A stretch of 64,000 bases of DNA from an uncultured Alphaproteobacteria bacterium (GTDB lineage: Bacteria > Pseudomonadota > Alphaproteobacteria > RF32 > CAG-239), in NCBI GenBank assembly GCA_934254585.1, contig CAKQLF010000001.1:245250-309249 (forward strand), read 5' to 3'. Each line of letters begins with the position of its first letter. The first letter of the stretch is position 1. Positions 19,552 through 37,445 of this stretch are shown here, one piece after another. Both the position numbers and the translations under genes were made by a program. The notes under the pieces were generated by a model that did no database searches, had not been told where the DNA came from, and saw only the letters and a program-made list of their open reading frames with translations.

Positions 19552-19732
19552 TTTGTTGATTTTTTCGGACAATGTATTTTCTTTTGTGTTGACAACCATT
19601 TTATATCTTCCTCCATCTGTTACCATATTTATAATAACATATTTATGTTTGATAATCCAGTTTTTTATTGAAAAAAAAATTTGTCAAGGTTATAGTCACG
19701 TTAGTTTATTTTATTTATGTAGGACAATGAAA

Positions 19733-21205: not shown

Positions 21206-21209
21206 GTAA

Positions 21210-22277: not shown

Positions 22278-22306
22278 AAAAAATTGATTTTATGTGAAAA
22301 AAGTTC

Positions 22307-22335
22307 TTGACCTTATGAAAAAATACAAGTATATA
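22307..22335 (+). promoter_or_regulatory. Sigma70-like promoter for tRNA-Glu
   Basis: TTGACC, 17-nt spacer, TATATA, about 20 nt upstream of the tRNA 5' end. Confidence 0.4.
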
Positions 22336-22355
22336 TGCGTATGTTCTTAATGAAT

Positions 22356-22430
22356 GGTCCCATCGTCTAATGGTTAGGACATCACCCTTTCACGGTGGCA
22401 ATATGGGTTCGAGTCCCGTTGGGATCACCA
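22356..22430 (+). tRNA. tRNA-Glu (anticodon UUC)
   Basis: 75-nt cloverleaf. Acceptor GGTCCCA/TGGGATC, anticodon loop CTTTCAC, T-loop GGTTCGAGTCC, encoded CCA. The overlapping ORF 22395..22805 is spurious. Confidence 0.85.
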
Positions 22431-22543
22431 ATACAAACGGCAGGCAGTAAAAAGCCTGCTTTTTCTTTTATTTCCAAGTACTTATGCGAGTTCGAATCTT
22501 TGTTTTTTGAAAACTGCGATTTTGGGAAGTTTTTCCGAACTCG
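22424..22543. repeat. Direct repeat copy 0 (tRNA 3' end plus flank; att-like), tRNA-proximal
   Basis: atcaccaatacaaacggcagg...ctttatttccaag...cgagttcgaa...tttgaaaactgcgattttggg...ccgaactcg. Contains a terminator hairpin (22436-22463) and a cgagttcg/cgaactcg inverted repeat. Confidence 0.7.
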
Positions 22544-22689
22544 CTTGCGCAAGTTTCTTTGTTTTTCAGTATATTACACAAGTTCACATCCGGTTAGGTC
22601 TTTGGGATACTTTTTTATCATCAATCAGATTAGAAGCCAGCTAACAAGAAAAGTTCTTGACCTTGACGACAAATTATTTTTTATACAAC

Positions 22690-22860
22690 CTCTGCAAATT
22701 TTAGCAGGGGTTCAGCTTCGAGCCACCATACCCAGCCCGCCATTCCGGTACTCTCCGGTCGGGATATGCCTACCTACCAGCCCACACTGGCTAGGCTTAA
22801 AATGACTAACAAAAGTTGGAAGAGGCCTTTACGTGCGAAGGCCTTAAAATGGCTTTGGCG
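22690..22860 (+). other. GC-rich structured segment downstream of a duplicated promoter-like element; candidate small RNA
   Basis: Local GC is far above the surrounding island. Hairpin-prone strings (ccggtactctccgg, ccagcc...ggctagg). Preceded by TTGACC/TTGACG promoter-like copy. Confidence 0.25.
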
Positions 22861-24398
22861 TTTTCAGTAGGATTTTATAACTTCTTTTCTTAAGCTAAAA
22901 AAATTGCTTGTTATGATTTAATGACATCGATGTCACTTAATGGATATTGATTAACCTTTAACATCCAAGTTTTAAAGGTTGGCTTTTTCTTTATAATACA
23001 TCTCAAAATATTAAAAGTAAGCAAAAAAAAATATACTATTTGGAAATTTATTTTATCAAATCTGAACAAGTAGACAATTCTAGAAATAAAAAGTTGGAGA
23101 ATTGCTCATGCGAAAAAAACAGAAAATAACCTCAAAAAAGAAGAGCCAACGCAGCTTCAGAGCTTTTATTTCCATAGTTAAATGGTATAAAAATAAATTT
23201 GATGTCGCACTCTATATTAGTAATATATATGGAAATGAGTGTTAAAAGAAAGAAGTCAACATTCGTAAATTACCTTTATGGAGAGATATAACAAATATTC
23301 AAAAACTGGCGTATTTTTTTTATTTTATGGCAGAAACAAAAAAATTCACAAATGTTAAACCATTTACATTAGACTTCAGTAAACAATTTAGAGATTGGTA
23401 TAACAAGTTAATATACAAAAAGCTAAAAGCAGTCATCATCAAAAGAATATATGGTAACCTTGATTATGTCATTCAATCACATAATAAACCTATGATGTCC
23501 TTTATACTTGAAAATAAACATAAGAATAAAAGAAAAGATATAAATGATAAATAGACTCATATACACGGGATTAGAGAAGTCTTTGATGAAGATATTGATA
23601 GTAAAGTCAGATTAGCATTAAAGACATCGGTTTGTAATGGTAAGAAAGAATATAAAGGAACCAAATACAAAAATATGCTCCAAACTAAAAAAGGATATGA
23701 TAAAAATGGTGCAAACGGTTGGTTATGGTATCTTAATAAAGGTGCTTGTTCCAATAATGGTTTGTATATATCTAAATCTCTTCTTGAAAAAATACGTGAT
23801 GACTACAACCTGCTTTATAAAGAATATAAATCAGACGTTAAAAATTTAAAAGATCATGGTATCAAGATTAAATACATCAATTTATAAGCTATATGACAGG
23901 AATCGTATATAAATTGTTTTTATCCATAAATGGTTTAATTCTGTAAATCTTAATCAAAACCCCCACATAAACAAGCCTAAATCAGCCCATAACAAGCCGC
24001 TTAATGAAAATCTGAGTAAACCTATACCAAATAAAACGGCTGAGTCCAGAAATCAAAAAACAAGATATTTAACCTTGTGCCCTTGAGGGCAAGAGGTTGC
24101 TTTAAAAGTTCGTGACGTTAATGACAAGTTATTTTTACAACCTTTGACATAAGCTTGTTAAAAGTTCTTCTTCGCAAATTAGAAACGGAAAAATAATTAA
24201 AAAAATGGTTTTACTTTGCCATAGAATCACGACATTAAGTATATATCAAAAGAAATTGATAGTTATAACACATTGTAAATAGGTATTATTATGTTTATTA
24301 GCTCATAAATAACCCGTGGACTCAAGAATTGCTTTTTCATAATAAACCTATACCAAAAGCAAAATCGTTATCCACTGGCCAAAATATGAGATTTATGG

Positions 24399-24749
24399 TT
24401 AGTATTCCTCTGCCAACATAATTGTCATAACTCTGTTGGTTATATTTGGATTGCTTGGATTCTCTGATAAGTATTGATAATTCTTGTCATAGTAATCTAT
24501 TTTGAAGTAAATTGTCTCGCCGTTATAATCAAAACTTCCGAAGTCATGTTCGCCATGAGGATCGTTAGCTTTAGTAAAATGATTAAACTGTCTGACTTCT
24601 GATAAGATTTTTGCAATATCATCTTGTGATTTAGCATTTATACCAGCAGTTAACATTACTCTTCCACCGGTAAAGGTTTGTCGGAAGTTGTCATTTAAGG
24701 TTTTAACATCTGTCATAACACACCTCTTAGGCAGACATTTCAGAAGCAA
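24399..24749 (-). CDS. DUF3768-family protein (plasmid/ICE-associated)
   Basis: Motifs NDNFRQTFTGGRVMLTAGI and DPHGEHDFGSFDYNGETIYFKIDYYD match the DUF3768 family seen on alphaproteobacterial plasmids. Probable start at the internal MTDV. Confidence 0.55.
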   Translation of the reverse strand: MLLKCLPKRCVMTDVKTLNDNFRQTFTGGRVMLTAGINAKSQDDIAKILSEVRQFNHFTKANDPHGEHDFGSFDYNGETIYFKIDYYDKNYQYLSENPSNPNITNRVMTIMLAEEY

Positions 24750-24984
24750 GAAACATTTTGAATTTTCTCAAAGCCTGACGAACAGAGGTATGGCTTCTTT
24801 TGCCATAGCTTGATTTTTCACTGGCTGTTTCATATTGAGGCAGGATAGAAGAAATGTTTTCAACTAGATAAGCAAGTGAAAATTTCTCTTTTCTACAAAG
24901 CCCTTCTATCCGCCCATGATAATCCAAAGCAGTTGTTGGTTTATAGTTTTGCTCCAAGAGCCAGTTTTCAAATTGTTTCAACAT
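24727..24984 (-). pseudogene. Possible truncated tyrosine-recombinase N-terminal (SAM-like core-binding) domain remnant
   Basis: 85 aa; F..WL...Y.PTT...Y...I and a C-terminal ALRKFKMFL pattern like integrase N-termini. No catalytic domain follows. Confidence 0.25.
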
Positions 24985-25287
24985 CTCGGCTCTCCTTATA
25001 AACTGACAATTTCAGTTATCACAGCGCAGCCGCGAGCCTTTTCAACCTCACAGGCATTCATCGCATCACGTAGATACCAATAAATCGTCGGCGTCAAGAT
25101 TCCATTCACTTTAATTTGATATATAATCAATCTCCTTTGGGTTATTAACTATGTATATTATGCCGTGAATTTTCCCATCCGCGAGCCCGTAAAACTCACC
25201 GCGTTGGTAACATTTTGCTACGATTGAGATATTTAACAAATCAAATAAAAATTTTAATAATGAAATACACAATTGATATGATTAATT

Positions 25288-26397
25288 TTAATCATTTTCA
25301 TAATCAATTTCTTCAAAACGCAAATTTGTATCATCAATATAATATGTGACATACTTAATCTTGCAAATATAAGTTTCATTAAATTTCTTTAAGGCTTCAA
25401 TACTTTTTAGGTATCTTTTTGTTTTCCTGTTTGTTTTTTTAACAATAATTGTAGGCTCTATTATATCTGGAATCGGCTGAAAATATTGTTTAATCCAACG
25501 TAAATATCTTCCGATTTGCTCTGTTATCTCGGGATAAATAGTTGTTGATTTCAATTCCATAGGTATTAATATTCTTTTATTAGTTTCTGCATTTGTAGCC
25601 ATTAACATAATATCAATCCGCCGCATACCAACGCCACACATTACTTCATTACCTAACCACTCCATTCTGCTATTATTTAAAAAGATTTCCTTCAACTCTG
25701 AATCAGCATCAATAGACTGAGTTATATATGTTTGCAAAAAAGCTTCATAAGCGTAACTGGTATATATCAATTTGCGTTTCACATTGATAGGGTGTGAAAA
25801 TTCTAAGTTATACTGGCTTCGCACACCCTCTATTATGGTTTTACTGTTTTGATCATATGAAAATTGCGAAAAAGCAAGAGGTATATTATCATTTTTAGAG
25901 CTAATCATATCAATTAATCGTTTTGACTCAGCTGGAGTTATCATTGTATTACCCCTATTACCATCTAGCTTTCTATAAATCAACGACCATAAAATATCAT
26001 TAGGTTTTTCAACTCCATCTAAATTATCCAAAGCTTCCCATTCAGTTACTCCTTTGGCGAAAACTATATCAGGCTCTAATAAAACACGAAAAGTAAGTTT
26101 TTTAGACAATTCTGGTGTTGCTTGGGATTTGGGATCAATAAAGCATCTATCTTTTGCTTGAAATACGCCATAAAAATGACCTTTACCCAATTCTCCAGTA
26201 CAATAGAAAATAATTTTATCTCCTTTGCGTATTCGCGCAGAATCCGCCATCATACCAACCAAATTTTGGGCAACCTTTTGATTTTCCGCTGTATCATTAA
26301 ATTCTACATCTAAATCTCTAGCTCCTGTGCCAGCAAACATATACTTTAAATGTAACGGGAAAGTTTTTTCATTTACAATAAAAACATGTGTGGTCAT
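25288..26397 (-). CDS. Putative restriction endonuclease (C-terminal PD-(D/E)xK-like motif) with N-terminal PUA/EVE-like barrel
   Basis: 369 aa, last gene of the MTase operon. RIDIML...IPMELK fits D...ExK. N-terminal GDKIIFY...GHFYGVFQ resembles PUA-like/EVE folds. Not recognisably DpnII/MboI-like. Confidence 0.4.
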   Translation of the reverse strand: MTTHVFIVNEKTFPLHLKYMFAGTGARDLDVEFNDTAENQKVAQNLVGMMADSARIRKGDKIIFYCTGELGKGHFYGVFQAKDRCFIDPKSQATPELSKKLTFRVLLEPDIVFAKGVTEWEALDNLDGVEKPNDILWSLIYRKLDGNRGNTMITPAESKRLIDMISSKNDNIPLAFSQFSYDQNSKTIIEGVRSQYNLEFSHPINVKRKLIYTSYAYEAFLQTYITQSIDADSELKEIFLNNSRMEWLGNEVMCGVGMRRIDIMLMATNAETNKRILIPMELKSTTIYPEITEQIGRYLRWIKQYFQPIPDIIEPTIIVKKTNRKTKRYLKSIEALKKFNETYICKIKYVTYYIDDTNLRFEEIDYEND

Positions 26398-26408
26398 AGT
26401 CTATATGC

Positions 26409-27209
26409 TCATTTCCTAAATAAAAATATATACTCGTGCTTAAACAAATACAAACCATTAGATAATGCTCTATACCGCCATAAAGCTTGCTGATTTTGTT
26501 TACCTTTAGTTGTGTCAAAATTTTTAACAATTATTGATTTAAGTTTCAGTTTTTCTCTCTGTGCTGCTTGCATTGCGTAAAAACCTAATGGAACAATTTC
26601 ACCATTAGCATACTTATCACCAATGACAATTACAAGGTATCTCCCTTTTGCTAAAACCTCTACACTTTTCTTTATTATTAGCTGAAACCTCTCAATAAAA
26701 TCTACCAATGTTTTGGAATTACTAAGGTTATCCTCATCTTGTCCAAATTTTATAATATCCCAATAAGGAGGATGCAAGATAACGAGCTGCACCTCTTTAA
26801 GATTATGATTATTTAATTCTTGCATATAGTTAATCTTTAAACTATCGCCACATACAAGAGAGGCTTCTGCTTTACAACCTTCATCTAAAAATCTTGCAGC
26901 ATTATCAAGTGCTTGTTGAGTTTGAAGACATGTATCTTGATTTATTTCAAAACCAAGAGCATTACGATTAAGTCGCCTTGCTTCAATTAAGGTTGTTCCT
27001 CCTCCTGCAAATGGATCTAAAACCCAATCCCCAGCTTTTGTATATCTCATAATAAACTGGTAAGGAATCTGAGGAACAAAATTTCCCCAAAAACCATTTT
27101 TATGTCCATGCTCATTATCTCTTTTATCAATAAGCCATAATGAATCAGTCCAGATATCTGTTAGATTTTTCCAATTATGTAAATCAAGCTCATTTATCTT
27201 ATTCATCAA
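26409..27209 (-). CDS. DNA N6-adenine/N4-cytosine methyltransferase (N6_N4_Mtase family), second MTase of the locus
   Basis: Motif I DPFAGGGTT and motif IV HPPY. Its start overlaps the Dam-like MTase stop by 4 nt. Confidence 0.7.
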   Translation of the reverse strand: MMNKINELDLHNWKNLTDIWTDSLWLIDKRDNEHGHKNGFWGNFVPQIPYQFIMRYTKAGDWVLDPFAGGGTTLIEARRLNRNALGFEINQDTCLQTQQALDNAARFLDEGCKAEASLVCGDSLKINYMQELNNHNLKEVQLVILHPPYWDIIKFGQDEDNLSNSKTLVDFIERFQLIIKKSVEVLAKGRYLVIVIGDKYANGEIVPLGFYAMQAAQREKLKLKSIIVKNFDTTKGKQNQQALWRYRALSNGLYLFKHEYIFLFRK

Positions 27210-28195
27210 TTTTTCTTCAGTATATGTAAATACTCAATAGTTTTATCAGCTAAATAACTCCTATTAGCATCAGCTTTAAAGCGTTGATAATCTTTTGTTG
27301 CTAAGGAATATTCACCATATTTGTTCATTGTAGATTTTATATCATCAACAGACATCAAACCTTCATTATTATAACTTAAAAAAATATATTTAAATTTGGC
27401 ATTTTTTATCAAATCATCAAAACTATCTAAAACTTTATCTCTTTTACAATATAATGAACGACTATAATCTCTGAGCCCTGTTTTACCTTTAGGCTGAAAT
27501 TTATCATACAAAGCTATTGTATTAAGTAAATGATAATTGGCTCCATATTGTCGTTCATTATACGGAGGATCCAGATACAAAATATCACCTTGAATATGTT
27601 TAATAAGTTGATTGGCATCCTCGCAATATACTTGGTGGTCATGGTCATTTATCTGATATAAAGCAGGCTCCAAATTTAATGATTTTTGAGCAGATTTCTT
27701 TAATTTTTTCAAGAATGCACCATATACAGATGCCGTATTTGCAACTCTATCTGCGCTTTCCAATAATGATGCAAGTAAAAAGTAATATTGATTATCTGAA
27801 ATTTTGGCTGTATCTTTCCATACTTGTATTTTATTTCTTATTGCATCAATTTTTTTGCCATTTTCATCAGAAAAATATTGCCGCCCAGAACCACTTCCTA
27901 AACAATAATTATTAAAGATAAAACCTTCTACACCTTCAAGGCTCATCAAATCAGATATTAACTTCTGGTAATCCATAGCCAAATGATTGCCTATATAGTT
28001 ACGATTTAATATATAGCTATATCGTTCAATATCATTAGAAATTATCTGTTTTGTTTTTAATTTGAAATAACGACCAACGATACCTGTTCCTGCAAATAAA
28101 TCACAAAAAACACATGATTTAATATCATTTACGACACGAGATATATTATCATCTAAAAAAGAAAGTAATTTATATTTTGATCCGATATAGTTCAT
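27206..28195 (-). CDS. Dam-family (D12 class, alpha) N6-adenine DNA methyltransferase
   Basis: MNYIGSKYKLL (Dam N-terminal), FAGTG motif I and LDPPY motif IV. Arrangement is like DpnM/MboIA. Confidence 0.8.
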   Translation of the reverse strand: MNYIGSKYKLLSFLDDNISRVVNDIKSCVFCDLFAGTGIVGRYFKLKTKQIISNDIERYSYILNRNYIGNHLAMDYQKLISDLMSLEGVEGFIFNNYCLGSGSGRQYFSDENGKKIDAIRNKIQVWKDTAKISDNQYYFLLASLLESADRVANTASVYGAFLKKLKKSAQKSLNLEPALYQINDHDHQVYCEDANQLIKHIQGDILYLDPPYNERQYGANYHLLNTIALYDKFQPKGKTGLRDYSRSLYCKRDKVLDSFDDLIKNAKFKYIFLSYNNEGLMSVDDIKSTMNKYGEYSLATKDYQRFKADANRSYLADKTIEYLHILKKN

Positions 28196-28258
28196 TGTTT
28201 ACCTTAATTTAAAATTCGATTTAATTTACATATAACGCATAAAAAAATCATTTGTAAA

Positions 28259-28897
28259 TCAAATTTCTCCTTTTCGAGCTTTTTTAATCACTTCTTTTCT
28301 GTATTCTACGGGATCATATTGATAGCATCCTTCACATCCGTAGTCATGCAACGATTTTCCACCTTTATAATAAGCCATTGGATTTCCGTCTAAGTTACGA
28401 GCATCCCAACGCTCTCCAGTTTCCATGCATTTTTTACAAATTTGCCTTTTGGCATCATTTGCAGCTTTTGTAAGAGGCTGAAAGTCATCAATTGTTTGGG
28501 TGCTTAAATCCGAAACGCGAAAATTGTTCTTTCTACCATCTTTGTGATCAATTTCAATTTTGATATTTTCAGAATTACCCCTAATTCCAAGCATTACGCA
28601 GTTTTTATCTTTATAATATTCTTTTATATCTGAACGAATTGTTTGATTAAATGACGCATCAGTATTAAGACCGATTGTTCTAACGGCATCAATAGAATTC
28701 CCCGACGTTTGAGTTTTATCAAATTCCAGCTTATACCTTTTAGCCAAAGTAGACTCTTTACGACACCAACTTCCTCCATTGCCAAGTTTTAATTCCCTGT
28801 ATTCTCCAACGAATTCTGCAACAGAAACCCAGCGGCTATATCCCTGTTCATTTGGTGATGCCAATTCTAAAAATAGTTCAGTTTTTGTTTTTTTCAT
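28259..28897 (-). CDS. Putative HNH/zinc-finger nuclease (candidate restriction or nicking endonuclease)
   Basis: 212 aa. EIDHKDGRKNN (HNH-like D-H...N-N) plus CxxC...CxxC pairs (ICKKC, GCEGC). First gene of the apparent R-M operon. Confidence 0.35.
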   Translation of the reverse strand: MKKTKTELFLELASPNEQGYSRWVSVAEFVGEYRELKLGNGGSWCRKESTLAKRYKLEFDKTQTSGNSIDAVRTIGLNTDASFNQTIRSDIKEYYKDKNCVMLGIRGNSENIKIEIDHKDGRKNNFRVSDLSTQTIDDFQPLTKAANDAKRQICKKCMETGERWDARNLDGNPMAYYKGGKSLHDYGCEGCYQYDPVEYRKEVIKKARKGEI

Positions 28898-29420
28898 AAA
28901 ATGACTCCTTTATTGAAAAGCTTATGTAAATAAAAACAAAAAAACAAGAAATCTTATTTTGTTATCTGCAACTTTTATCGTTTCAACCTTTAACTTGGCA
29001 ATGTCAAAGGTTACAAAATTTCATTTTTAATAAAATTTTTCAAATAATCTCAAAAAACTTTAGTAGAAATTCGCAAGCTTCATATTCTATAAAATATGAC
29101 AAATGCGTATAATCAACTCAAAAATGAGTTATCAATTCTCTATCCCGATGTTACGGATATTGAATTAAAAGAAATGGCAAGCAATCTGATTGATTTTTAT
29201 ACAACGGCTGTAAAAGCCGTTTTAGAAGATGATACAAAAGAATTTGTTACTGATGACAAAAACTCTTCTTCATAACCTTATTTATTTTGTAAATTAGGTT
29301 AATTGTTTGAAAAATCAGCAAAATATTAGCAATAAAGTCGTCAGAAACAGAAAATAACCGCTTACATTCCCAAAATAACGCGACATAATATTATTATGTA
29401 AAAACAAAGGAGTAATGAAT

Positions 29421-31004
29421 ATGGCTAAGAAATACAGATATGCTAAAGCTGCACCATGCGTTCAGGCTGTCATTTTTGCACGCGTATCTACCAAGGAACA
29501 AGAACCAGGGGGTTCTCTAAAGGCTCAGAAAGAAGCAATGGAAGATTATTGTAACAAAAAGGGACTTCCTATTGTTCAGAAATATAAAGCGGTTGAAAGT
29601 TCCACCAATGGCAAACGTACAAAATTCAATGAAATGTTAGACTTTGTAAAAAAGCAGAAACGCAAAACCGCGATTGTTGTCCATTGTATTGACCGTTTTC
29701 AAAGACGCTTCAATGAATGTGTGGAAGTTGAAGAAATATTATTAGATGACAAAACTGACCTGCATTTTTGCAAAGAAAGGTTAATTCTCACTAAAAATAG
29801 TCCGTCTTCTGATATTATGCGTTGGGATATGGGCATTTTATCCGGCAAAATGTATGTGGCAAATCTGCGAGATAATGTTAACAGAGGTATGAATTATAAC
29901 TGGTCGATTGGAAAATATCAGACAAAGGCTCCGGTTGGGTATTTGAATATTAACAAAGACATTATTGTTGATTCAGAACGTGCACCTTTAGTTAAAAAGA
30001 TGTTTGAGATGTATGCGACCGGACAATATTCCGTAAAACGCTTGCAAGAATTTGCCTCGGAAATGAATTTATGTTCTTCTCATTCTAAAACAAATAAACC
30101 ATTAGGACGAGAAACCATATATGCGATGTTAAAAAATCCGTTTTATTATGGTGAAATGGTAATCCGTGGTGAAATTATGCCACATGCTTATGAACCTCTT
30201 ATTTCAAAATCATTATATGATAAAGTTCAAGAAGTGCGTTCTGGTGGTAAAATACATACAAAAATGCGAGAATATGCCGGAATTCCTTTTGTGTTTCGCG
30301 GATTGATAAAATGTGCGGAATGTGACGGCACCATCTCATCAGAACAGCATTTTAAGAAAAGTGGCAGAAAATATACTTATTTGCGTTGTACACACTCAAA
30401 CGGTTGTTGTCATCAAGGTCTGGTTAGCGAAAACCTTTTATTACAACAACTTGATGATGAAGTTTTTAGTAAACTAAGACTTAGCAAGAATATTTTAGAG
30501 CCTCTGAAAAAATGCGTGCAGAAAAAATTGATTGAAGAATCCGAAGCAAATACCATTGTAAAACGCAAGATCTCCGTGGAATTAAACAATCTTGAAGCTA
30601 AAGAGAGACGGGTTAAGGATTCATTTTTTGACGGAGACATAACCAGAGAGGAATGGCAGGAAGAAAAAGCTATTATTGCCACCAAGAGGGAAGAATTACA
30701 ACGGACAGCTAAAAAATATGCCGATATTAGCAAAGATATTCAAGTAACTGTTAATGAAATTTTAGATATTGCGGCAACTGTTTCCGATATTATGAAAAAA
30801 GCTGATTCTACTCAGCAAAATAAATTGTTAAGTCTTATGCTCTCAGAATGTTATCTTGACGGTCAGAGACTAATTTATACGTTGAGAAAACCTTTTGACA
30901 AGCTGATTAACCTCAAAAATGCCAGTACCTGGTTTGATTTTGATAAATCAGACATCAAGGAATACAAAAACAGGACAGATAAAGTGGAGAGGTATAAGAA
31001 TTGA
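29421..31004 (+). CDS. Large serine recombinase (resolvase catalytic domain, recombinase domain, zinc ribbon, coiled coil)
   Basis: AVIFARVSTKEQE catalytic-serine motif. Cys-rich zinc ribbon (CAECDG...CTHSNGCC) and a C-terminal coiled coil. Opposite strand to the rest of the island. Start at 29421 has an aaggag RBS. Confidence 0.8.
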   Translation: MAKKYRYAKAAPCVQAVIFARVSTKEQEPGGSLKAQKEAMEDYCNKKGLPIVQKYKAVESSTNGKRTKFNEMLDFVKKQKRKTAIVVHCIDRFQRRFNECVEVEEILLDDKTDLHFCKERLILTKNSPSSDIMRWDMGILSGKMYVANLRDNVNRGMNYNWSIGKYQTKAPVGYLNINKDIIVDSERAPLVKKMFEMYATGQYSVKRLQEFASEMNLCSSHSKTNKPLGRETIYAMLKNPFYYGEMVIRGEIMPHAYEPLISKSLYDKVQEVRSGGKIHTKMREYAGIPFVFRGLIKCAECDGTISSEQHFKKSGRKYTYLRCTHSNGCCHQGLVSENLLLQQLDDEVFSKLRLSKNILEPLKKCVQKKLIEESEANTIVKRKISVELNNLEAKERRVKDSFFDGDITREEWQEEKAIIATKREELQRTAKKYADISKDIQVTVNEILDIAATVSDIMKKADSTQQNKLLSLMLSECYLDGQRLIYTLRKPFDKLINLKNASTWFDFDKSDIKEYKNRTDKVERYKN

Positions 31005-31101
31005 ACCAATACAGGTTACGCAAAATTTCAAAGCTAATGACGCTATGAAAATCAATTGTGCAAAAACGATAAGAATTTTCTATGTTAAGGAGTATGCAAA
31101 A

Positions 31102-32475
31102 TTAGTTTTCAATTAGATATGAAGAAATCACGCGTATCCAAGATGACAAATACAAGATTTCAATACCTAATTTTTCTTCTAATGTATCTTTAGCTTGTTG
31201 TAATTGCTTCATGATGTCATTAATATTATGCTCTTTTATGAAGTTATATTCTTTTTCTTTATTATATAAATAATGTCTCAAGCACAGTTCTTTGGCTTCA
31301 GTTGTAGGATATGACATCATTACACTATACTCTTGTCCATTTTTACTTTTTCGTATATTGGTCACAGTATTTATAATGCCAAATTCTTGAATATCGCTTT
31401 CAGGGTCATTTTTTATTATTTCTTTACACTGAGGACAATCACAAACTTTTTCAAAATATATACTTTTGCTATTAAGCCATCCTTCATCTAATAACAGCTG
31501 AATTATATTTCTAAAATGAAAGCGTTTGTGAGCTATAGGTAAATAAAATTTAGAAATAGGGACGCCTCCTCCTACGGGGAAAACACTTCTAGATTCTCCA
31601 TATTCCATACCGTGACAACAAGCCTGCAACAATCCCAAATTAATAAGTATTAGTGAAAAATAACTGCCGTATAATTGTGAAACTGGAATGTTTTTTTCTT
31701 TAAATTTTACTAACAAGTATAAATAATTGTTTAGTAAAACATCTCCAGCATCTTTTTCATCAAACGCATCAATCCACAATAAAATTTCACAGGGATTAAC
31801 TTTTGAGTATTCATCAACTAAAAGGTTAAGCTTGTCCTTATCCAACAAAATGCTTGAATTAATAACAAGTTGTGCAGAAATAGAAGGATGATAAGTTTTA
31901 GACAATTCAATCGCTTTAGTATTAATATGTAACCAGTGATTGAAATTATTATCAGATAAATAAAAATAAGGAGCTATTAAACAGCAAGGAGCTACGCATA
32001 AACTGTTTTCATCATTTCCTAAAATATACTCTATGTATTCTTTATATTCATTTTTTTCTTCTAATACTTCTTTTTTTATAGTATTTTGCTGAAATTCAAT
32101 AACTTTTTGACATAGTTCTTTTAAAAAGGTGTCATTATCATCGAAGTCTGTTAACTCAATTGACCGCTTTTTACATGAAATTATATCTTTTAATGTGTCA
32201 CCGTAAAAGCTGAGAAGCTTTTCAATAGATTTTTTCAAATTACCATCAGATCCAATCAAACCTTGATAGTATTGGAATGCATACGTTTGAGGGTCAATTA
32301 TGAAATCTTTTTTACATAATTCATTGCTTATAAATTTGGAAATAGAATTAGTACAATGTGCAAAGATATTTGCATTTAGTATTAAAACATCATATGAATC
32401 ATTAAAACTTGAAACATATTTTTTTTCTGCATTGGTACCAAAGCGTAATAAATGTGTTCCTTTAATCATACCCAA
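31102..32475 (-). CDS. Cys-rich protein with tRNA-guanine transglycosylase (TGT/DpdA)-like motifs; 4th gene of candidate defence operon
   Basis: 457 aa. LNANIFAH (compare TGT LGNTFHL), DPQTYAFQ (compare DSGGFQ), IDAFDE, VGGGVP, a CDCPQC zinc knuckle (compare E. coli Tgt CDCYTC) and a downstream RHYL. Assignment is by motif only. Confidence 0.3.
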   Translation of the reverse strand: MGMIKGTHLLRFGTNAEKKYVSSFNDSYDVLILNANIFAHCTNSISKFISNELCKKDFIIDPQTYAFQYYQGLIGSDGNLKKSIEKLLSFYGDTLKDIISCKKRSIELTDFDDNDTFLKELCQKVIEFQQNTIKKEVLEEKNEYKEYIEYILGNDENSLCVAPCCLIAPYFYLSDNNFNHWLHINTKAIELSKTYHPSISAQLVINSSILLDKDKLNLLVDEYSKVNPCEILLWIDAFDEKDAGDVLLNNYLYLLVKFKEKNIPVSQLYGSYFSLILINLGLLQACCHGMEYGESRSVFPVGGGVPISKFYLPIAHKRFHFRNIIQLLLDEGWLNSKSIYFEKVCDCPQCKEIIKNDPESDIQEFGIINTVTNIRKSKNGQEYSVMMSYPTTEAKELCLRHYLYNKEKEYNFIKEHNINDIMKQLQQAKDTLEEKLGIEILYLSSWIRVISSYLIEN

Positions 32476-32885
32476 ACTCCATTGATTCTGTTTTTAAAAG
32501 CTTCATTTAACCAAATTTTTCCAACCTTCCATACTTTTCTATTATGTTTTGCAGGGTAAATGGTTTCTATTAATTTGTCACTATCCTTATCAAAGAAAAC
32601 AAGACCAACATCAGTTTTTTCCATTGCTTTTGATAATTTTTCGGGTATTTTTTTCTTAGGTTTAGGGATACATATATATACTTCATTTGTGCCTAAAAAA
32701 TGACTCGATGCTTGCTCTATGGCTCGTTTCCAATTATCAATTTTAAATTCAATAGCAATTAATTGGTTTTTTTTAAGGTAAACAAGATCTATAGACTGTT
32801 GCATAAAAGGAACCTCCGTTACAACTTGAATTCCTTTTTTTCTTAAATAATCTTGAACTTTATTTACCATCTCAATTTCGTACAT
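32466..32885 (-). CDS. Small PD-(D/E)xK-like nuclease-fold protein; 3rd gene of operon
   Basis: 139 aa. TEVPF...IDLVYL...IAIEFK gives an E-P...D...ExK pattern like restriction-endonuclease/Hjc-like folds. Confidence 0.35.
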   Translation of the reverse strand: MYEIEMVNKVQDYLRKKGIQVVTEVPFMQQSIDLVYLKKNQLIAIEFKIDNWKRAIEQASSHFLGTNEVYICIPKPKKKIPEKLSKAMEKTDVGLVFFDKDSDKLIETIYPAKHNRKVWKVGKIWLNEAFKNRINGVWV

Positions 32886-32895
32886 AATCCAGTCC

Positions 32896-33423
32896 TTATA
32901 TTATGAAATCTGCTTGTCTTTTTATTTCAGTAGATAAATGCCTAAATCCCATATATGTACCCCATATTCTACAAATGCAGTATAGTAAATAAAGAAAAAT
33001 TATAATTATTAACCCATTAAAGATATCTAAATATTTTTCTTGCGCAAAGACTTTTCCATATTTACTGCATAAGAGCCAAGCATTTTTTATAGCTGCAGTA
33101 CCAAAAATTAAGATAGCGGAAACTATTAACCTTGAAGTGTATTTTGCATATTTATTGATATGTTTCTTTAAATTTATTTTATTCTCAAAAGCTACAGACA
33201 TTTGCTTGATGAATAAAGAGAAGGATGTGCTCATACTATCGTCATATACTAGATTATTGTGTATTTTATTTTCTATTTTTTCAATAAATTCGGCAAGAAG
33301 CGAAGTTTTCGTCAATAAAAGTGAATTTAAAATTTGATTAGCTTTATCATCAAATTTAGTAAATATAGGGAAAATAATTCCCAGTAGAACACCTGCAACT
33401 GCTAAAATATCCTCAAATCCCAT
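32896..33423 (-). CDS. Small multi-pass membrane protein (candidate toxin/effector); 2nd gene of operon
   Basis: 175 aa with 3-4 hydrophobic helices. Sits 3 nt downstream of the Panacea-domain gene. Confidence 0.4.
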   Translation of the reverse strand: MGFEDILAVAGVLLGIIFPIFTKFDDKANQILNSLLLTKTSLLAEFIEKIENKIHNNLVYDDSMSTSFSLFIKQMSVAFENKINLKKHINKYAKYTSRLIVSAILIFGTAAIKNAWLLCSKYGKVFAQEKYLDIFNGLIIIIFLYLLYCICRIWGTYMGFRHLSTEIKRQADFII

Positions 33424-33426
33424 TAT

Positions 33427-34014
33427 TTAATAACCTTTCAATACTTTTTCTTTTATTTTTGATTTCTCAGTAAATTCCGGGTATTTAGTATATACATATC
33501 GCAAAATATCACGCAACTTTGCCTTATTGTATCTGGCTTTAAATGCTGATAAAATTTCTTTTTGATTATTAGACAAGCTTTCATATTTATTCTTTTGCTG
33601 AATGAACTGAACTCCTTTGTCACTGATTTCAAAGCGTTCTAATGCATATTCAACAGGTTTTACATCTAATTCTTTTTCCGCATAATCATTAAATTCTGAA
33701 ATTTCTTCATAAGTTAAAATATCACTACTATTTGAATATGAAGTTGAGATAAAATCTATATTTTTTAAGAAATCAATATCTTTAAATGCTTTAATAGACA
33801 TTGGACCAAAATTCCAAGCGGTAAAGAAAAACAAATCATCACTATATTCCAGTGTATCTTCAGTAAATTTTTTTAAAATTTCTTTTTCAAAAATAAAAAG
33901 GAGTTTTGTTAATTTTGTCCGACCTTCTATAGCTTCGCGGAATTCTTTTGTATAACCGGGAGAATACAAAAGCAACATGATTATATCAACAGATGTTAAT
34001 TTTATTTTGGACAT
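33427..34014 (-). CDS. Panacea-domain (DUF4065/GepA-like) protein, candidate antitoxin; 1st gene of operon
   Basis: 195 aa. TKLTKLLFIF...FTAWNFGPMSIKAF matches the Panacea hallmark (T/N)KLQKLLY...AWxxGPV. Confidence 0.45.
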   Translation of the reverse strand: MSKIKLTSVDIIMLLLYSPGYTKEFREAIEGRTKLTKLLFIFEKEILKKFTEDTLEYSDDLFFFTAWNFGPMSIKAFKDIDFLKNIDFISTSYSNSSDILTYEEISEFNDYAEKELDVKPVEYALERFEISDKGVQFIQQKNKYESLSNNQKEILSAFKARYNKAKLRDILRYVYTKYPEFTEKSKIKEKVLKGY

Positions 34015-34123
34015 TGTAAAACCTTTACGAACTACTCTAATATATTATAATACAATTTATTCCTATCAAGTTAAGAAATAATAAATTAATTTGCACAGCT
34101 TTTAATCTTTTTAGCTCGGAAAC

Positions 34124-34245
34124 TGTGAGGTAAGCATCACCAATACAAACGGCAGGCATAAAAACCTGCCGTTTTGCTTTATTTTCCAAGCCTTTCAGCG
34201 AGTTCGAATGTTGTAAATTTGAAAATTGCGTTTTCGGTTTTTTGT
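34124..34245. repeat. Direct repeat copy 1 (att-like, tRNA 3' end plus terminator hairpin)
   Basis: gtgaggtaagcatcaccaatacaaacggcaggcataaaaacctgccgtttt...ctttattttccaagcctttcagcgagttcgaa...tttgaaaattgcgttttcgg. Near-identical to copies 0 and 2. Confidence 0.7.
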
Positions 34246-34264
34246 TAATAAAGGTTAAATTTTA

Positions 34265-35080
34265 TCAACGTCGTATTCCTATGTCTCTTAAAGTTTGATT
34301 AACGATTTTATTAACATTATTTTGTTGTCTTTCCTTAGCAAAAAATCTATTTCCAGCTTTTACGCAATCCGGGCAAATCGGAGATAAGCCTTCTCTTTTG
34401 CAAGCTAATCTGGCTCTTGTTATATCGCTGAAATCTCCATCAACTCTTTGTTGCATAATACAAAGACCATCTTCGTCCGTACAATGAGTTCCATAAATAT
34501 CGGCAGAATTTTCCCTTCCTTCATAGGTGAGGCCTATTACATGGCCAAATTCATGCATTAATACAGTTTTGAAATTTTCACAATCAATGATGTTGCCAGA
34601 GTCGTCTGAAAATCTGCGGGCAGAAACGACACATCCAATTCCTTCATCTCCCAACCCGAAACAATAATTCATTTCTTGATTGGGATATAAATCATCTTTG
34701 GTAAGTAAAATTGTAAATTGCGGAATTTCTTTATTTGTTGGATCGGTCTGCATGGTTTGAAATAATGTGCTTGCATTTAATTGATTAGGACGACCGTCTA
34801 GGATAGCATCTCTTTTGGCATTTTCAATGTGCCAGCGTGTACTTTTATATGGAGCCAGATAAAGCTTGCCGTTTTCCGGATATATATATCCAGTGTCTTT
34901 CCATGCACCTAAATTCGTGATTGGATAATCATTTTTATATTGAGGAAAGCAAGCCATCAATTCTTTTATGGCTTCAACGGCTATTTGGTTTGCCTGAGGA
35001 TTGAGACCGTCTTGGCTGACAATAAATATATCTTTTTGCTTCATAAACGTTATCCCCCTCCTTAGTATAGAATATACCAT
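34265..35080 (-). CDS. Archaemetzincin-like zinc metalloprotease (peptidase M54-like)
   Basis: HEFGHVIGLTYE...HCTDEDGLCIM...CPDC fits the archaemetzincin signature HExxHxxGxxH + CxxxxCxM + CxxC. Confidence 0.6.
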   Translation of the reverse strand: MVYSILRRGITFMKQKDIFIVSQDGLNPQANQIAVEAIKELMACFPQYKNDYPITNLGAWKDTGYIYPENGKLYLAPYKSTRWHIENAKRDAILDGRPNQLNASTLFQTMQTDPTNKEIPQFTILLTKDDLYPNQEMNYCFGLGDEGIGCVVSARRFSDDSGNIIDCENFKTVLMHEFGHVIGLTYEGRENSADIYGTHCTDEDGLCIMQQRVDGDFSDITRARLACKREGLSPICPDCVKAGNRFFAKERQQNNVNKIVNQTLRDIGIRR

Positions 35081-35124
35081 AATTTTATGTAAAAAAAAAG
35101 AAGTTTCAGCTTGTGAAACATAAA

Positions 35125-35249
35125 TTAAGCATCACCAATACAAACGGCAGGTATAAAAAACTGCCGTTTTTCTTTATTTTCCAAGCCTTTCAGCGAGTTC
35201 GAAAGTCGTATTTTCGAAAACCGCTTTTTGGGAAGTTTTTACGAACTCG
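35125..35249. repeat. Direct repeat copy 2 (att-like)
   Basis: ttaagcatcaccaatacaaacggcaggtataaaaaactgccgttttt ctttattttccaagcctttcagcgagttcgaaag...ttttgggaagtttttacgaactcg. Overlaps the last ~22 codons of the 35190..35843 gene. Confidence 0.7.
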
Positions 35250-35843
35250 TTTATGTTGATTTTTTTGTTTATAACAAATTGTTACCAATACATCATTGTT
35301 TGGATAACCATATAAATTGGAATCATATTGCGGATTACTCACTTTGATGTATTTTGTTTCTCCGTAATTAATTTTTCCCAGCGCATGCGAAACATATCCA
35401 CTTCCGTCTCTAGGGGCATAATAAGGAATTGAACCTTTGATAGCAAACATTCTCACATATCCTCCCTTTTTATCTTTAGCTTCTTCTCCTGTCCAAAAAT
35501 AGATGTGACTATCGTTTTCCCAAATATTCATAGCTTTCATAAGTGAATCGTTTCTATTACCATAAATGCTTGTTTCTGTTGTTTCCTTATTATATATTTT
35601 TTTTGCTAATTTATGTAGATCATTTCCTGTAGGTAGATTCTCAATGTGCCCGCAAGCTTTGGCTGCACCAGCTAGGTAATCATTGTCATAAGGACAATAT
35701 TTTAAGCCGAGAGTTTCTTTATAAGAGAGGCATTCTTTTTGACTTAATGGAGTATATTCTACTTTTATGAAGTCTTTTGCATAAGCATGATTGATTAGGC
35801 CTATACTGATAATGCTTAGTATTTTTATGCTATTTTTAATCAA
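35190..35843 (-). CDS. Secreted protein of unknown function (signal peptide)
   Basis: 217 aa. Signal peptide MIKNSIKILSIISIGLINHAYA. C-terminal tail (RKNFPKSGFRKYDFRTR) is encoded inside repeat copy 2. Confidence 0.5.
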   Translation of the reverse strand: MIKNSIKILSIISIGLINHAYAKDFIKVEYTPLSQKECLSYKETLGLKYCPYDNDYLAGAAKACGHIENLPTGNDLHKLAKKIYNKETTETSIYGNRNDSLMKAMNIWENDSHIYFWTGEEAKDKKGGYVRMFAIKGSIPYYAPRDGSGYVSHALGKINYGETKYIKVSNPQYDSNLYGYPNNDVLVTICYKQKNQHKRVRKNFPKSGFRKYDFRTR

Positions 35844-35925
35844 AGTAGTCTCCTAGTGATAATTATGATGCCTTTTGAACATATTATTTATTCATTAATA
35901 TATCATTAAACAGTAGCTCGTAATT

Positions 35926-35979
35926 TGTGAGTTAAGCATCACCAATACAAGCGGCAGGTATAAAAACCTGCCGTTTTTT
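35926..35979. repeat. Direct repeat copy 3 (truncated, att-like), followed by a strong GC hairpin 35992-36013
   Basis: tgtgagttaagcatcaccaatacaagcggcaggtataaaaacctgccgtttttt, then aaaaccccgcg ttaga cgcgggg ttt. Confidence 0.65.
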
Positions 35980-36114
35980 GTATAAAGAAAACCCCGCGTT
36001 AGACGCGGGGTTTAGTGTAGTTTATAGCGGTGAGTTTGACAAAGTGCTTCTAGTAATTACTTTAACACAAACTTTTTAGAAACTTAAAGCATAACCCCAC
36101 AAAATGCTACAGAC

Positions 36115-36723
36115 TCAAAATTTACTTTTTATATAGCGATGTATTGTTATCCAACTGCAGTCCATCAATCTGGCCATTTCGGCTTTTGATATGCCTTTAT
36201 TTATCAGTTCGACAATTTTATTATGTTTTTTCTCAAGTTTTTGATATGAAAGTCCTCGTGGTCGTCCAAGCCGTTTTCCCTCATCTTTTAGGCGTTTTAG
36301 CGAGTTTTTTGTTCGCTCGGAAATCAACTGGCGTTCCAACTCTCCGACTAATGAAAAGGCAAAGGCTAAAATTTTACTTTGAATATCAGCACCTAAGCGG
36401 TAATTTTCTTTCAATGTCCAGATTTGGCAACCTTTTTCCAAACAATGTTGCAAAATTCCCATAACTTCAAGCAAATTTCTTCCTAAACGGCTTAATTCGG
36501 TTGCAATTAAAATATCTCCTTTTTTAAGCTTTTTCAATAATTTACCAAGTTTTCGTTCGGTGAGCAATTTGCGTGAAGAAATTGTTTCTGAAATCCATTT
36601 ATCAATAGGGATATTGTGTTGTTGCGTATAAGTTAGAATTTCGTGTTGTTGGTTTTGGGTGTTTTGATGGTCGGTGCTAACCCGAATATAAGCGTAGTAC
36701 ATAAAAAAAGTCCTTATAGTCAT
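36115..36723 (-). CDS. Small serine recombinase (resolvase/invertase family) with C-terminal HTH
   Basis: YAYIRVSTDHQNTQNQ catalytic-serine motif, ELSRLGRN and C-terminal HTH (ISKAEMARLMDCSWITIHRYI). Probable start at MYYAY (36702). Confidence 0.8.
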   Translation of the reverse strand: MTIRTFFMYYAYIRVSTDHQNTQNQQHEILTYTQQHNIPIDKWISETISSRKLLTERKLGKLLKKLKKGDILIATELSRLGRNLLEVMGILQHCLEKGCQIWTLKENYRLGADIQSKILAFAFSLVGELERQLISERTKNSLKRLKDEGKRLGRPRGLSYQKLEKKHNKIVELINKGISKAEMARLMDCSWITIHRYIKSKF

Positions 36724-36867
36724 TAATCCAGATTATGAAAGTTAGCAGAAAACAGCATCTTTTAGGCGTGATAAAATAGAGGATTTTGGGAAAAGTTATT
36801 GACAATTTAGGCTAAAAAAGGTTACTTGATATTTAGTATATCTAATTATTAATTAATAATTATTATT

Positions 36868-37371: not shown

Positions 37372-37445
37372 AATAAAGCGATAGTCTTGGGGCTATCGCT
37401 TTATTGTTGACTTTAAATAAGGTCTTTTTAATAACTTAATTAAAT

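Follow-up and report, generated by a model that had tools for sequence, protein, structure and literature searches.

A tRNA-Glu-anchored tandem array of probable mobile units associated with serine recombinases in uncultured gut Alphaproteobacteria

The stretch of DNA analyzed here (the window; 64,000 nucleotides (nt) of contig CAKQLF010000001.1, from an uncultured alphaproteobacterium) carries a tRNA-Glu gene that is followed by a tract partitioned by direct repeats. This tract is best read as a tandem array of three mobile units, placed site-specifically at the extreme 3' end of tRNA-Glu, probably by a serine recombinase. The units would be an 11.7-kb recombinase-bearing element (unit 1), a 1.0-kb cassette carrying the gene p271, and a 0.8-kb cassette carrying the gene p217. 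Direct support comes from the repeats, the boundaries of the units, the empty, occupied and variant alleles found in relatives, the near-identity of cassettes across species, and the co-occurrence of recombinases and sites. Labels such as L012 and L107 denote related loci used for comparison, and the coordinates of the window's features are collected in Table 1.

The repeats form a four-copy direct-repeat family (R1 to R4) built around a 9-nt core, ATCACCAAT, that consists of the final 7 nt of tRNA-Glu plus AT. The cores start at 22424, 34136, 35131 and 35938, with spacings of 11712, 995 and 807 nt. When acceptor pairing is read from the sequence, the tRNA portion of the core (ATCACCA) corresponds to the last 3 nt of the acceptor stem, the discriminator A and CCA; therefore, just 7 nt of the tRNA are repeated. 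The 21-mer ATCACCAATACAAACGGCAGG is exact at 22424, 34136 and 35131 and has one mismatch at 35938; the rest of the 64 kb has no further copy, and 100 dinucleotide shuffles produced no match. An earlier reading of this DNA, made from the letters alone (the sequence-only reading), had proposed a tRNA-Glu-anchored four-copy repeat of the last 7-8 nt of the tRNA that delimits segments of 11.7, 1.0 and 0.8 kb, and this was confirmed by ARAGORN, Rfam, the repeat family and the shuffles, with 7 nt of the tRNA present in all copies. The repeat starts that it placed at 34124, 35125 and 35926, however, lie 6-12 nt upstream of the true cores, because copies 2 to 4 share a left arm that is missing from the tRNA copy. 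This 23-nt left arm, AGCTCGnAAAnnGTGAGnTAAGC (also written AGCTCGnAAnnTGTGAGnTAAGC), lies left of cores 2 to 4 and has no counterpart in the tRNA; by eye, it does not align with the T-arm or acceptor of the tRNA beyond ATCACCA. The profile used to score the left arms was built from 47 such arms.

To the right of the core, R1 and R3 carry a full right arm, made up of a terminator hairpin, CTTTATTT(T)CCAAG, then GCGAGTTCGAA, about 40 nt, and CGAACTCG. By profile search, the R1 arm is 126 nt long, and it was stretched to approximately position 22685 by homology to the arms of L016, L024, L048, L075 and others; the R3 arm measures 125 nt (35131-35255) and the R4 arm 43 nt only (35938-35980). The R1 arm holds the hairpin at 22439-22460 (terminator scan), CTTTATTTCCAAG, and the inverted repeat GCGAGTTCGAA...CCGAACTCGC at 22490-22545. 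The right arm of R2 stops within the loop of the inverted repeat at 34237, and the same shortened arm accompanies p271 in L107, L124 and L125. A terminator-like hairpin was called in R1, R2 and R4, and in R3, which the scan did not flag, the same hairpin is visible by eye. R1 to R3 contain the motifs CTTTATTTTCCAAG, CGAGTTCGAA and TTTGAAAAYTGCG, which R4 lacks. The sequence-only reading had also taken the repeat's tail of about 100 nt for the downstream chromosomal flank of attB; it is instead the right arm carried by each unit, which replaces the native terminator.

Comparison with relatives revealed empty and occupied alleles of the same site. The nearest genome records are metagenome-assembled genomes, mostly labelled uncultured Alphaproteobacteria, and the contigs with exactly the same flanking proteins come from human-gut metagenomes, Hadza samples among them. 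A polysaccharide deacetylase gene followed by tRNA-Glu was observed in 14 of 14 close relatives; the tRNA is followed by a window-type arm in nine of them, and by a different, ordinary terminator in the other five (L012, L013, L015, L018 and L022). L012, from a sister lineage, represents an empty site, in which the order is tRNA-ATCACCAATA-native terminator. L107 is collinear with L012 (96.1% identity over 5270 nt upstream and 96.8% over 282 nt downstream) and consists of the L012 flanks plus 1793 nt; the 10-nt ATCACCAATA, single in L012, flanks the insert of L107 on either side. The insert is a p271 cassette followed by a p217 cassette, and the array closes with a left arm, a core and the L012-type native terminator. 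A second series, with another but closely similar native terminator, comprises L013 (empty), L023 (one cassette), and L024 and L096 (two cassettes, the first encoding a MarR protein and a metallo-beta-lactamase-fold protein, and the second p217). L025 shares the left flank of L012, and where L012 is empty it has an element that bears a recombinase; therefore, the ends used by recombinase elements and by cassettes are the same two. Elements moved by a large serine recombinase are expected to show the same short core at each junction (9-10 nt here) and an empty site in relatives. These alleles, with the 10-nt duplication in L107 and the strain-level variation described below, support the serial site-specific integration proposed earlier; a lack of empty-site alleles in relatives had been named in advance as the finding that would tell against it, and the relatives include both empty (L012) and occupied (L107, L025) sites.

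Identity between loci begins and ends at the cores. The p217 unit (35125/35131-35946) is 97-98% identical to its counterparts in L023 and L024 and 94% identical to that in L014, as compared to 78-84% for the neighboring core DNA; across L014, L023, L024, L058, L096 and L107, p217 is 94-97% identical as protein, and its unit 94-98% identical in nucleotides. For the p271-p217 pair (34136-35949), identity reaches 97.7% in L123, as against 83.5% in the flanks, and the p271 protein is 100% identical in L107, in a different species and context; it is listed in 81 index blocks (contexts L123-L127). These high-identity blocks start at 34136 or 35125/35131 and stop at 35946-35950, which are cores; the L014 block continues to 36051. 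Since the blocks begin and end at cores, each unit can be read as a right arm (P'), cargo and a left arm (P), and with such boundaries a free unit would carry a P-ATCACCAAT-P' site. The right arm in this anatomy comprises a terminator hairpin, the GAGTTCGAA...TTCGAACTC inverted repeat and a promoter-like box. Both cassettes, p271 and p217, carry a core with arms on either side and one ORF (open reading frame), which does not encode a recombinase; this is the arrangement of att sites by which cis-mobilizable elements are recognized.

Variation was also evident between closely related strains. L014 and L058 are 99.2% identical over 12 kb and diverge after the p217 unit, where L014 ends in a native-type flank and an IS200-like element (insertion sequence, IS) and L058 goes on with another unit. 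In sample ERZ27287395, two contigs (L126 and L129) are 99.9% identical to the window, with the array broken exactly at core 3: L129 runs from ftsK through the small recombinase, p217, the R3 right arm and the core into a different, canonical left arm preceded by unrelated coding sequence, and L126 runs from the large element through p271 and the core into an arm, after which comes part of a second large-serine-recombinase gene. Judged by these alignments, L126 and L129 contain an extra element inserted exactly at core 3, and the variation of the array is current. Six contigs of the window's species end at the core, which may hint at assembly branching.

The candidate enzyme is the large serine recombinase of unit 1. 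This 529-amino-acid (aa) protein carries the three domains expected of its class, namely a catalytic resolvase domain (PF00239, 1.4e-18; motif ARVSTKEQ), a recombinase domain (PF07508, 1.3e-14) and a zinc ribbon (PF13408, 5.6e-6); a PDB search returned only a weak match, to the resolvase-domain structure 3guv (E 8.6e-5). Homologues with 73-93% identity are present in L021, L025, L048, L051, L057, L060, L080, L097 and L124, always co-oriented with the sites; where the sequence extends far enough, a left-arm site lies 0.9-3.5 kb downstream of each gene. In at least 10 loci, such homologues, mostly accompanied by a small serine recombinase, are situated in elements delimited by the sites of the array. 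A resolvase domain is present in 10 of 100 array-locus ORFs that are 180 aa or longer, and six of the ORFs are large serine recombinases; no tyrosine recombinase was found among the families matched by at least two of these ORFs, a search that could miss a singleton. Likewise, Pfam finds only serine recombinases in the region of the window, so that the tyrosine integrase expected of an Islander-type island is not seen there. The protein search retrieved more than 1000 relatives of the recombinase, and the few with a named source are from Alphaproteobacteria. A small serine recombinase of about 199 aa and an ORF of 60-80 aa still precede the large gene in relatives whose identity has fallen to 58%, 48% and 42%, and the large and small genes are adjacent in L025, L057, L060, L097, L124 and L132-139.

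In the 42% lineage (L137-139), the module abuts a tRNA-Gln(CTG) gene on the opposite strand, and a 20-nt repeat of the tRNA-Gln 3' end is located 11 kb away; at both sites, sequence resembling the right arm comes next (nhmmer E 4e-5 and 4e-7). In L136, the left-arm-like AGCTCGGAAATCGCGAG precedes a different core. The arms thus appear to travel with the recombinase family while the core changes with the target, and this constancy of arms with varying core is the strongest indirect argument for the large serine recombinase as the cognate enzyme. We regard it as reasonably probable that this protein, perhaps together with the small serine recombinase, acts on the sites of the array. In L137-L139 (10001-11601), the recombinase ORF was also observed to overlap the tRNA-Gln gene on the opposite strand by 33 nt, with an arm-like inverted repeat inside the C-terminal coding region; therefore, integration or excision at these loci might alter the C-terminus of the recombinase.

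The proposed mechanism is as follows. A circularized unit would carry P-ATCACCAAT-P' and would cross over with the tRNA end (TTGGG-ATCACCAAT-native flank) inside the 9-10-nt core. On insertion, the 7 tRNA nucleotides would be regenerated, and the incoming unit would bring a new terminator in place of the native one; every additional insertion would raise the number of cores by one. Most probably, the reaction is catalyzed by the large serine recombinase of unit 1, possibly paired with the small one as in DsiA/DsiB and CcrA/CcrB, and cassettes that lack a recombinase would be moved in trans or along with neighboring units. In this scheme we infer the catalyzing protein, the circular intermediates, the exact crossover dinucleotide and the roles of the arms.

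It should be noted that several observations weigh against this scheme. No circular form was found, nor any contig with a terminal overlap, and there is no empty allele in the window's own species, where 17 of 17 informative contigs carry the 11.7-kb element (exact-protein look-ups). The arrays of L023, L024, L096 and L107 have no recombinase in the available sequence, and therefore action in trans from elsewhere in the genome must be assumed for them. The recombinase gene is not directly at the end of its element. The internal junctions are attP-like (P-core-P'), and insertion or excision there would need pairs of sites that canonical large serine integrases of phages are not known to recombine, although CcrAB has been reported to be promiscuous. 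Canonical sites of large serine recombinases span about 40-50 bp, and the conserved right arm of 100-250 nt is unexplained by the known biology of these enzymes. Furthermore, the right-arm-like sequence of L137 overlaps the 3' coding region of the recombinase itself, so that the association of arm and recombinase could partly reflect common descent and not binding. The window's arms were checked as possible fossils of a recombinase 3' end; the frame is not preserved, and no recombinase-like peptide was found.

The array could also have been built by a tyrosine integrase or an Xer-type host enzyme encoded elsewhere, with the serine recombinases being cargo or serving other sites. Tyrosine integrases drive most tRNA-gene islands (PMC4383910), and the four arrays with no recombinase in view are compatible with such an enzyme. 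Long conserved arms, as seen here, are typical of the attP sites of tyrosine integrases. This explanation is nevertheless unlikely. The array ORFs include 10 with serine-recombinase domains, as compared to no tyrosine-integrase family among those matched by at least two; recombinase-bearing elements are bounded by exactly the sites of the cassettes; and beside tRNA-Gln, remote homologues of the large serine recombinase are found together with the same right arm. A 7-nt tRNA duplication is also short for a tyrosine-integrase site, and the core is unlike a dif site.

Little weight is given to the explanation that the cassettes are immobile remnants of decay, and that the arrays differ through homologous recombination between arms of 100-250 nt or through transfer of whole arrays. 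The arms, at 80-95% identity, have the length needed for homologous recombination, p271 and p217 usually occur together and in the same order, with p217 always distal in the array, and accretion with cis-mobilizable elements is an established model (PMC5704250). A decay origin would also fit the shortened arms of R2 and R4; however, unrelated one-gene units and a unit without an ORF share one scaffold, which decay alone does not predict. The ORF-less unit, 298 nt long in L016, has both arms, as do many one-gene units of 0.5-1.7 kb, and repeated independent decay is unlikely to yield that outcome. Moreover, identity across species starts and stops at the 9-nt core and not at varied points within the arms, and p217 has at least four different left neighbors and at least five different right neighbors.

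Far less probable is that the repeats are not recombination sites at all, but a tandem duplication of the region downstream of tRNA-Glu or a dispersed repeat of the repetitive extragenic palindromic or miniature inverted-repeat transposable element type that carries a terminator. The repeat does include a terminator and a promoter-like box resembling the tRNA promoter (family D12), and the right arm directly follows tRNA-Glu in nine of 14 related species; however, the 64 kb hold no other copy, the empty alleles show a different native terminator right after the core, and the segments between repeats are unrelated to one another, low in GC and horizontally shared, and the comparison of L012 and L107 effectively refutes this explanation. 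A classical integron, with IntI and attC-bounded cassettes, would account for an array of short, mostly single-ORF units with diverse cargo and a repeated site between them, but this reading is refuted by the failure to detect IntI or another tyrosine recombinase in the searches above, by a single conserved site family with a fixed, tRNA-derived 9-nt core in place of variable imperfect palindromes, by cassette genes in both orientations, by an anchor that is a tRNA gene and not attI, and by inverted-repeat changes that are non-compensatory and thus unlike attC-type folding.

Within the preferred reading of serine-recombinase-mediated integration, a broader proposal can be put forward tentatively. 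The large-serine-recombinase family may run an integron-like platform for gene capture in gut Alphaproteobacteria, in which small cassettes, some of them ORF-less, on a scaffold of up to about 300 nt would be swapped between species and stacked at a tRNA 3' end, with constant arms and a short core that would be re-targeted (Glu, Gln), possibly also to a portable tRNA-like attB. The scaffold would then consist of the right arm, giving the tRNA a terminator and the cassette an inward promoter, plus the 23-nt left arm. A scan of metagenome contigs for the junction TAAGCATCACCAATACAA returned 78 matches, 25 of them with the full left arm and many from human-gut assemblies; the left arm was required as a filter, given that about two thirds of the 78 are unrelated coding sequence or chance. 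Viral contigs scanned for the junction 18-mer gave only two chance matches, both lacking arms. Units in the array loci measure 0.3-2.7 kb and hold 0-2 ORFs, with genes on either strand. Their cargo includes a HAD hydrolase, a UvrD-type helicase, an inositol monophosphatase, a GDSL lipase, Fic, MarR with a metallo-beta-lactamase-fold protein, small membrane proteins and ankyrin-repeat proteins. The 298-nt unit of L016 (11258-11565) has no convincing gene, and consists of a right arm, a promoter-like box, a left arm and a degenerate core, ATCATCAAT. In addition, an RVT_1 ORF (E 2.8e-12) was observed inside the array locus of L048 (331-1704, minus strand in stored orientation), and L137 likewise has an RVT_1 gene near its recombinase module; these genes may be retrons or other defense-type cargo.

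The right arms belong to one conserved sequence family, with a mean column identity of 76% across 24 arms. The core-adjacent hairpin is kept with several different stems (GGCAGG/CCTGCC, CAGCAGCC/GGCTGCTG, CAGCGC/GCGCTG and CAACAGGC/GCCTGTTG), and varies in both stem sequence and loop length; the stems were read directly from the sequences. Such variation fits a terminator with which each unit has to supply the tRNA gene. For the GAGTTCGAA/TTCGAACTC inverted repeat, it is the sequence that is conserved, and the few changes seen are non-compensatory, which indicates that the repeat is not under selection as a hairpin; a protein-binding feature or a vestige is more likely here than a folded structure. 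Further into the R1 arm, TTGACC at 22657 belongs to a promoter-like copy resembling the tRNA-Glu promoter at 22297-22324, and may function as a promoter.

Several further segments were observed. At 22647-22880 of the window, the TTGACC box is followed by 17 nt, TTTATA and a GC-rich stretch amid AT-rich DNA, which is 91% conserved in L021; the region has no Rfam match and an unremarkable fold (z = -1.6), and could be a small RNA or the 5' leader of the element. In L126 (approximately 6940-7030, site orientation) and L103 (approximately 1410-1490), a GC-rich insert of about 90 nt, TCGCAAAAACGGCTTT...GCGCAATG, occupies the same spot in the inverted-repeat loop of unrelated right arms, and resembles a miniature element for which the arm itself would be the target. 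Another GC-rich segment, approximately 140 nt long (AAGAGCCCAGGAGAG...CTCGTTGGGATCACCA), has the tRNA-Glu 3' end as its final 14 nt; it was found in L057 (6330-6484, site orientation) and also in L048, L051, L060, L064, L078, L090, L092 (twice) and L097. It comes after a terminal site, and a core, a right arm and additional small cassettes lie beyond it; its fold has an acceptor-like closing stem and an ACCA tail (z = -2.35), and the segment is possibly a tRNA-like RNA serving as a second, portable attB. Searches of the related loci with ARAGORN and Rfam, this segment included, found nothing to identify the left arm or the GC-rich CGTTGGGATCACCA segment as a tRNA or transfer-messenger RNA (tmRNA).

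Table 1. Features of the tRNA-Glu-anchored array and its right-hand boundary in the window
Feature	Coordinates	Strand	Basis or remark
tRNA-Glu(TTC), intact, sole tRNA gene of the window	22356-22430	+	ARAGORN; Rfam RF00005, 59.8 bits
Core copy 1 (ATCACCAAT), attL-type junction (tRNA left, element right arm right)	22424-22432	+	
R1 right arm (P')	22433-22685	+	Profile match 22424-22549, E 6e-34; repeat family D12; homology
Unit 1, 11.7-kb integrative element with large serine recombinase and defense-type cargo	22433-34135	+	Cores 1 and 2, no internal site
DUF3768 protein (24399-24749) and 85-aa protein (24727-24984)	24399-24984	-	Pfam
Type II restriction-modification cargo	26409-28897	-	Pfam; PADLOC MTase_II, E 8e-105 and 2e-131
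59-aa ORF directly upstream of the recombinase	29096-29275	+	60-80-aa ORF at the same place in homologous modules
Large serine recombinase, 529 aa, candidate integrase for the whole array	29415-31004	+	Pfam; contexts of homologues
Four cargo ORFs: 457 aa (no match), 139 aa (weakly nuclease-like), 175 aa (no match), 195 aa	31102-34014	-	
R2 left arm (P), tAGCTCGGAAACTGTGAGGTAAGC	34108-34135	+	Left-arm profile, E 1.6e-14
Core copy 2 and R2 right arm, 102 nt, part of p271 cassette	34136-34237	+	Profile
Cassette gene p271, HEFGH zinc-metalloprotease-like motif	34265-35080	-	Weak Pfam match
R3 left arm, diverged, AGCTTGTGAAACATAAATTAAGC	35104-35130	+	Profile, E 5e-7
Core copy 3 and full R3 right arm, part of p217 cassette, overlapping the 3' end of the p217 ORF	35131-35275	+	
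Cassette gene p217, hydrophobic N-terminus, sole gene of R3-R4	35190-35843	-	
R4: left arm (35907-35937), core copy 4 (35938-35946), right-arm remnant with terminator hairpin only (35947-35980)	35907-35980	+	
Perfect hairpin CCCCGCGTTAGACGCGGGG and about 40 nt	35989-36051	+	Identity to L014 runs to 36051
Small serine recombinase, 202 aa, resolvase and HTH_7, motif IRVSTDHQ	36115-36723	-	Pfam, 2.4e-32
167-aa ORF, last gene of the low-GC tract	36868-37371	+	No Pfam or PHROGs family match
ftsK, first core gene at right, outer limit of the accessory region	37446-40274	-	Pfam; GC up to 0.41

The left part of unit 1 (22562-23720) is 91% identical to L021, as compared to about 82% for core DNA. The gene pair for the DUF3768 and 85-aa proteins belongs to the backbone, with homologues in the recombinase-bearing elements L019, L025, L097, L058 and L132-135, and a 369-aa protein encoded between R1 and R2 has no family match. 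The restriction-modification cargo comprises an N4/N6 methyltransferase (26409-27209), a Dam-class methyltransferase (27206-28195) and an endonuclease of the IceA/NlaIII family (28259-28897). The 195-aa ORF has weak matches to SocA/Panacea (E 8e-4) and PDC-M19A. No signature of a phage, a satellite or conjugation was found in the cargo proteins by PHROGs and PADLOC, which returned only the restriction-modification methyltransferases and two weak matches, and no conjugation or mobilization genes were seen in the window's element. As for the cassettes, p271 is 259 aa long when counted from the second methionine at 35044, is the sole gene between R2 and R3, and has a weak reprolysin-like match (E 6e-3); p217 is a probable secreted protein. 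The accessory character that the sequence-only reading had assigned to the enclosed genes holds for the restriction-modification system and the recombinases, but its toxin-antitoxin-like and protease genes correspond to the weak SocA/Panacea and reprolysin-like matches.

At its right end, the accessory tract continues beyond R4. The GC content is 0.311 in 22431-34135 and 0.342 in 34136-35946, as compared to 0.383 and 0.407 in the flanks, so the enclosed DNA is indeed richer in AT, as had been noted; however, low GC (0.340) runs past R4 to 37445. The hairpin DNA next to R4 is the same as that directly preceding an IS200-type transposase gene (Y1_Tnp) in L014 (12110-12673), and 35989-36051 is probably the remnant of an IS end that shortened R4. 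Sub-threshold Rfam matches to small RNAs and leaders at approximately 35941-36081 (search of 21000-38000, E up to 1) were rejected as reflecting the two hairpins, with the tRNA being the only RNA found. The small serine recombinase beyond the hairpin is 83% identical to the copy in L057 and 50-60% identical to those in L019, L025, L060 and L097; it lies 5 kb from the large one, inverted and outside the recombinase-bearing unit, and both recombinases of the window retain the catalytic RVST motif. The 167-aa ORF occurs on nine contigs only, always beside the small serine recombinase and ftsK, as compared to 40 index blocks for the flanking deacetylase. A profile search detected no degenerate extra site inside the 11.7-kb unit or between R4 and ftsK, and because of the latter the distal boundary is not definable by a site. 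The DNA between R4 and ftsK can be read as the stump of a fourth, older element that would have lost its arm and its large recombinase, probably by IS activity. With this stump and with low GC up to ftsK, the accessory tract is 22431-37445 and not 22356-36013. The array had been thought to end at 36013, but R4 is shortened, the IS200-like remnant comes next, and 1.4 kb more of low-GC accessory DNA follows; for these reasons an empty allele that joins the tRNA to the sequence after 36013, as had been predicted, is unlikely to exist, and none was seen among contigs of the window's own species. At the other flank, LysS is 94-96% identical in relatives (L012-L025), as compared to 67-70% for the adjoining deacetylase; this slowly evolving gene beside a divergent deacetylase of varying length (354-376 aa; window 19553-22277) makes for a sharp contrast in rate between neighbors.

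Tandem accretion at tRNA and tmRNA genes is well known, and the basic phenomenon is therefore ordinary. What is distinctive here are units down to a single gene or an ORF-less scaffold, with exact core-to-core limits and near-identity across species, which in function amounts to a cassette system, as well as serine recombinases as the associated enzymes, a tRNA duplication of 7 nt and a long conserved right arm. A full-text search of the literature found no paper that joins 'large serine recombinase' with gene-cassette, array and integron-like terms. The host bacteria, uncultured gut Alphaproteobacteria of low GC, are abundant in non-industrialized populations such as the Hadza, and their mobile elements are essentially uncharacterized. 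If the link to the recombinase is true, these loci would offer natural examples of one arm architecture with different cores, which would be relevant to the re-targeting of serine integrases for genome engineering; likewise, TAAGC-ATCACCAAT-ACAA would be a marker for harvesting the accessory genes of these bacteria from metagenomes.

Measured against Islander-type islands, the array has an intact tRNA gene at one end and a displaced tRNA 3' fragment, which at 7 nt is much shorter than usual. Cis-mobilizable elements of the ICESt1/ICESt3 family are att-flanked units that lack integration and transfer genes and are arranged in tandem beside an autonomous element at the target's 3' end (PMC5704250). 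The present array resembles this type of accretion in its recombinase-less, att-flanked units stacked at a tRNA gene; however, the ICESt1/ICESt3-type elements use tyrosine integrases and conjugative partners, and their recombinase-less units are regarded as decay products, whereas a uniform scaffold with varied cargos is seen here. Tycheposons of Prochlorococcus target tRNA genes, form tandem arrays and create variable islands, and 27 of 937 encode large serine recombinases (bioRxiv 10.1101/2020.12.28.424599). They are alike in stacking at tRNA genes and in the occasional large serine recombinase, but most use tyrosine recombinases, they carry replication modules, and they are not described as single-gene cassettes with a shared scaffold.

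The likeness to integrons lies in a single-site array of short, mostly one-gene units with diverse cargo, in the presence of ORF-less units, and in a promoter-like element within the conserved part. The differences are a serine rather than a tyrosine enzyme, a site of the double-stranded type rather than a folded attC, the lack of attI and IntI, and a gene orientation that is not fixed; every defining integron feature that was tested is absent here. SCCmec and other composite islands of the staphylococcal cassette chromosome (SCC) carry CcrAB or CcrC and reside at rlmH in staphylococci, and the Enterococcus cassette chromosome (PMC6222049) is grouped with them here. SCC islands share with the present array large serine recombinases at the 3' end of a conserved gene, tandem arrays partitioned by repeats, and some segments that lack a recombinase. 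Dissimilar from the present array, the SCC target is protein-coding, the elements range from kb to tens of kb and are not single-gene, neither Ccr protein is small, and a long conserved arm is lacking.

By this comparison, which was made from published descriptions, the closest known system appears to be the ssrA islands of Dehalococcoides (DsiA/DsiB), with the SCC composite islands next. The Dehalococcoides islands are arranged in tandem, are bounded by a 20-bp repeat of the tmRNA 3' end, and have a conserved non-ssrA motif just upstream of it (McMurdie et al. 2011, PMC3146451); their module consists of a 540-aa CcrB-like DsiB and a 200-aa DsiA, and some units without the module are read as cis-mobilizable (PMC3146451). 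Both systems have tandem islands after a gene for a small stable RNA, 3'-end repeats, an upstream motif, a large and a small serine recombinase (side by side in relatives of the window, 5 kb apart in the window itself), and module-less units. They differ in the target, which is tRNA-Glu here (tRNA-Gln in the distant relative) and tmRNA there, and in the length of the RNA-gene repeat, which is 7 nt as compared to 20 bp. The module is co-oriented with the tRNA near the right end in the window's clade, and antisense at attL in Dehalococcoides. Finally, the hosts here are gut Alphaproteobacteria, and their arrays contain many single-gene or ORF-less cassettes of 0.3-1.7 kb that share a conserved scaffold of up to about 300 nt, both arms counted together.

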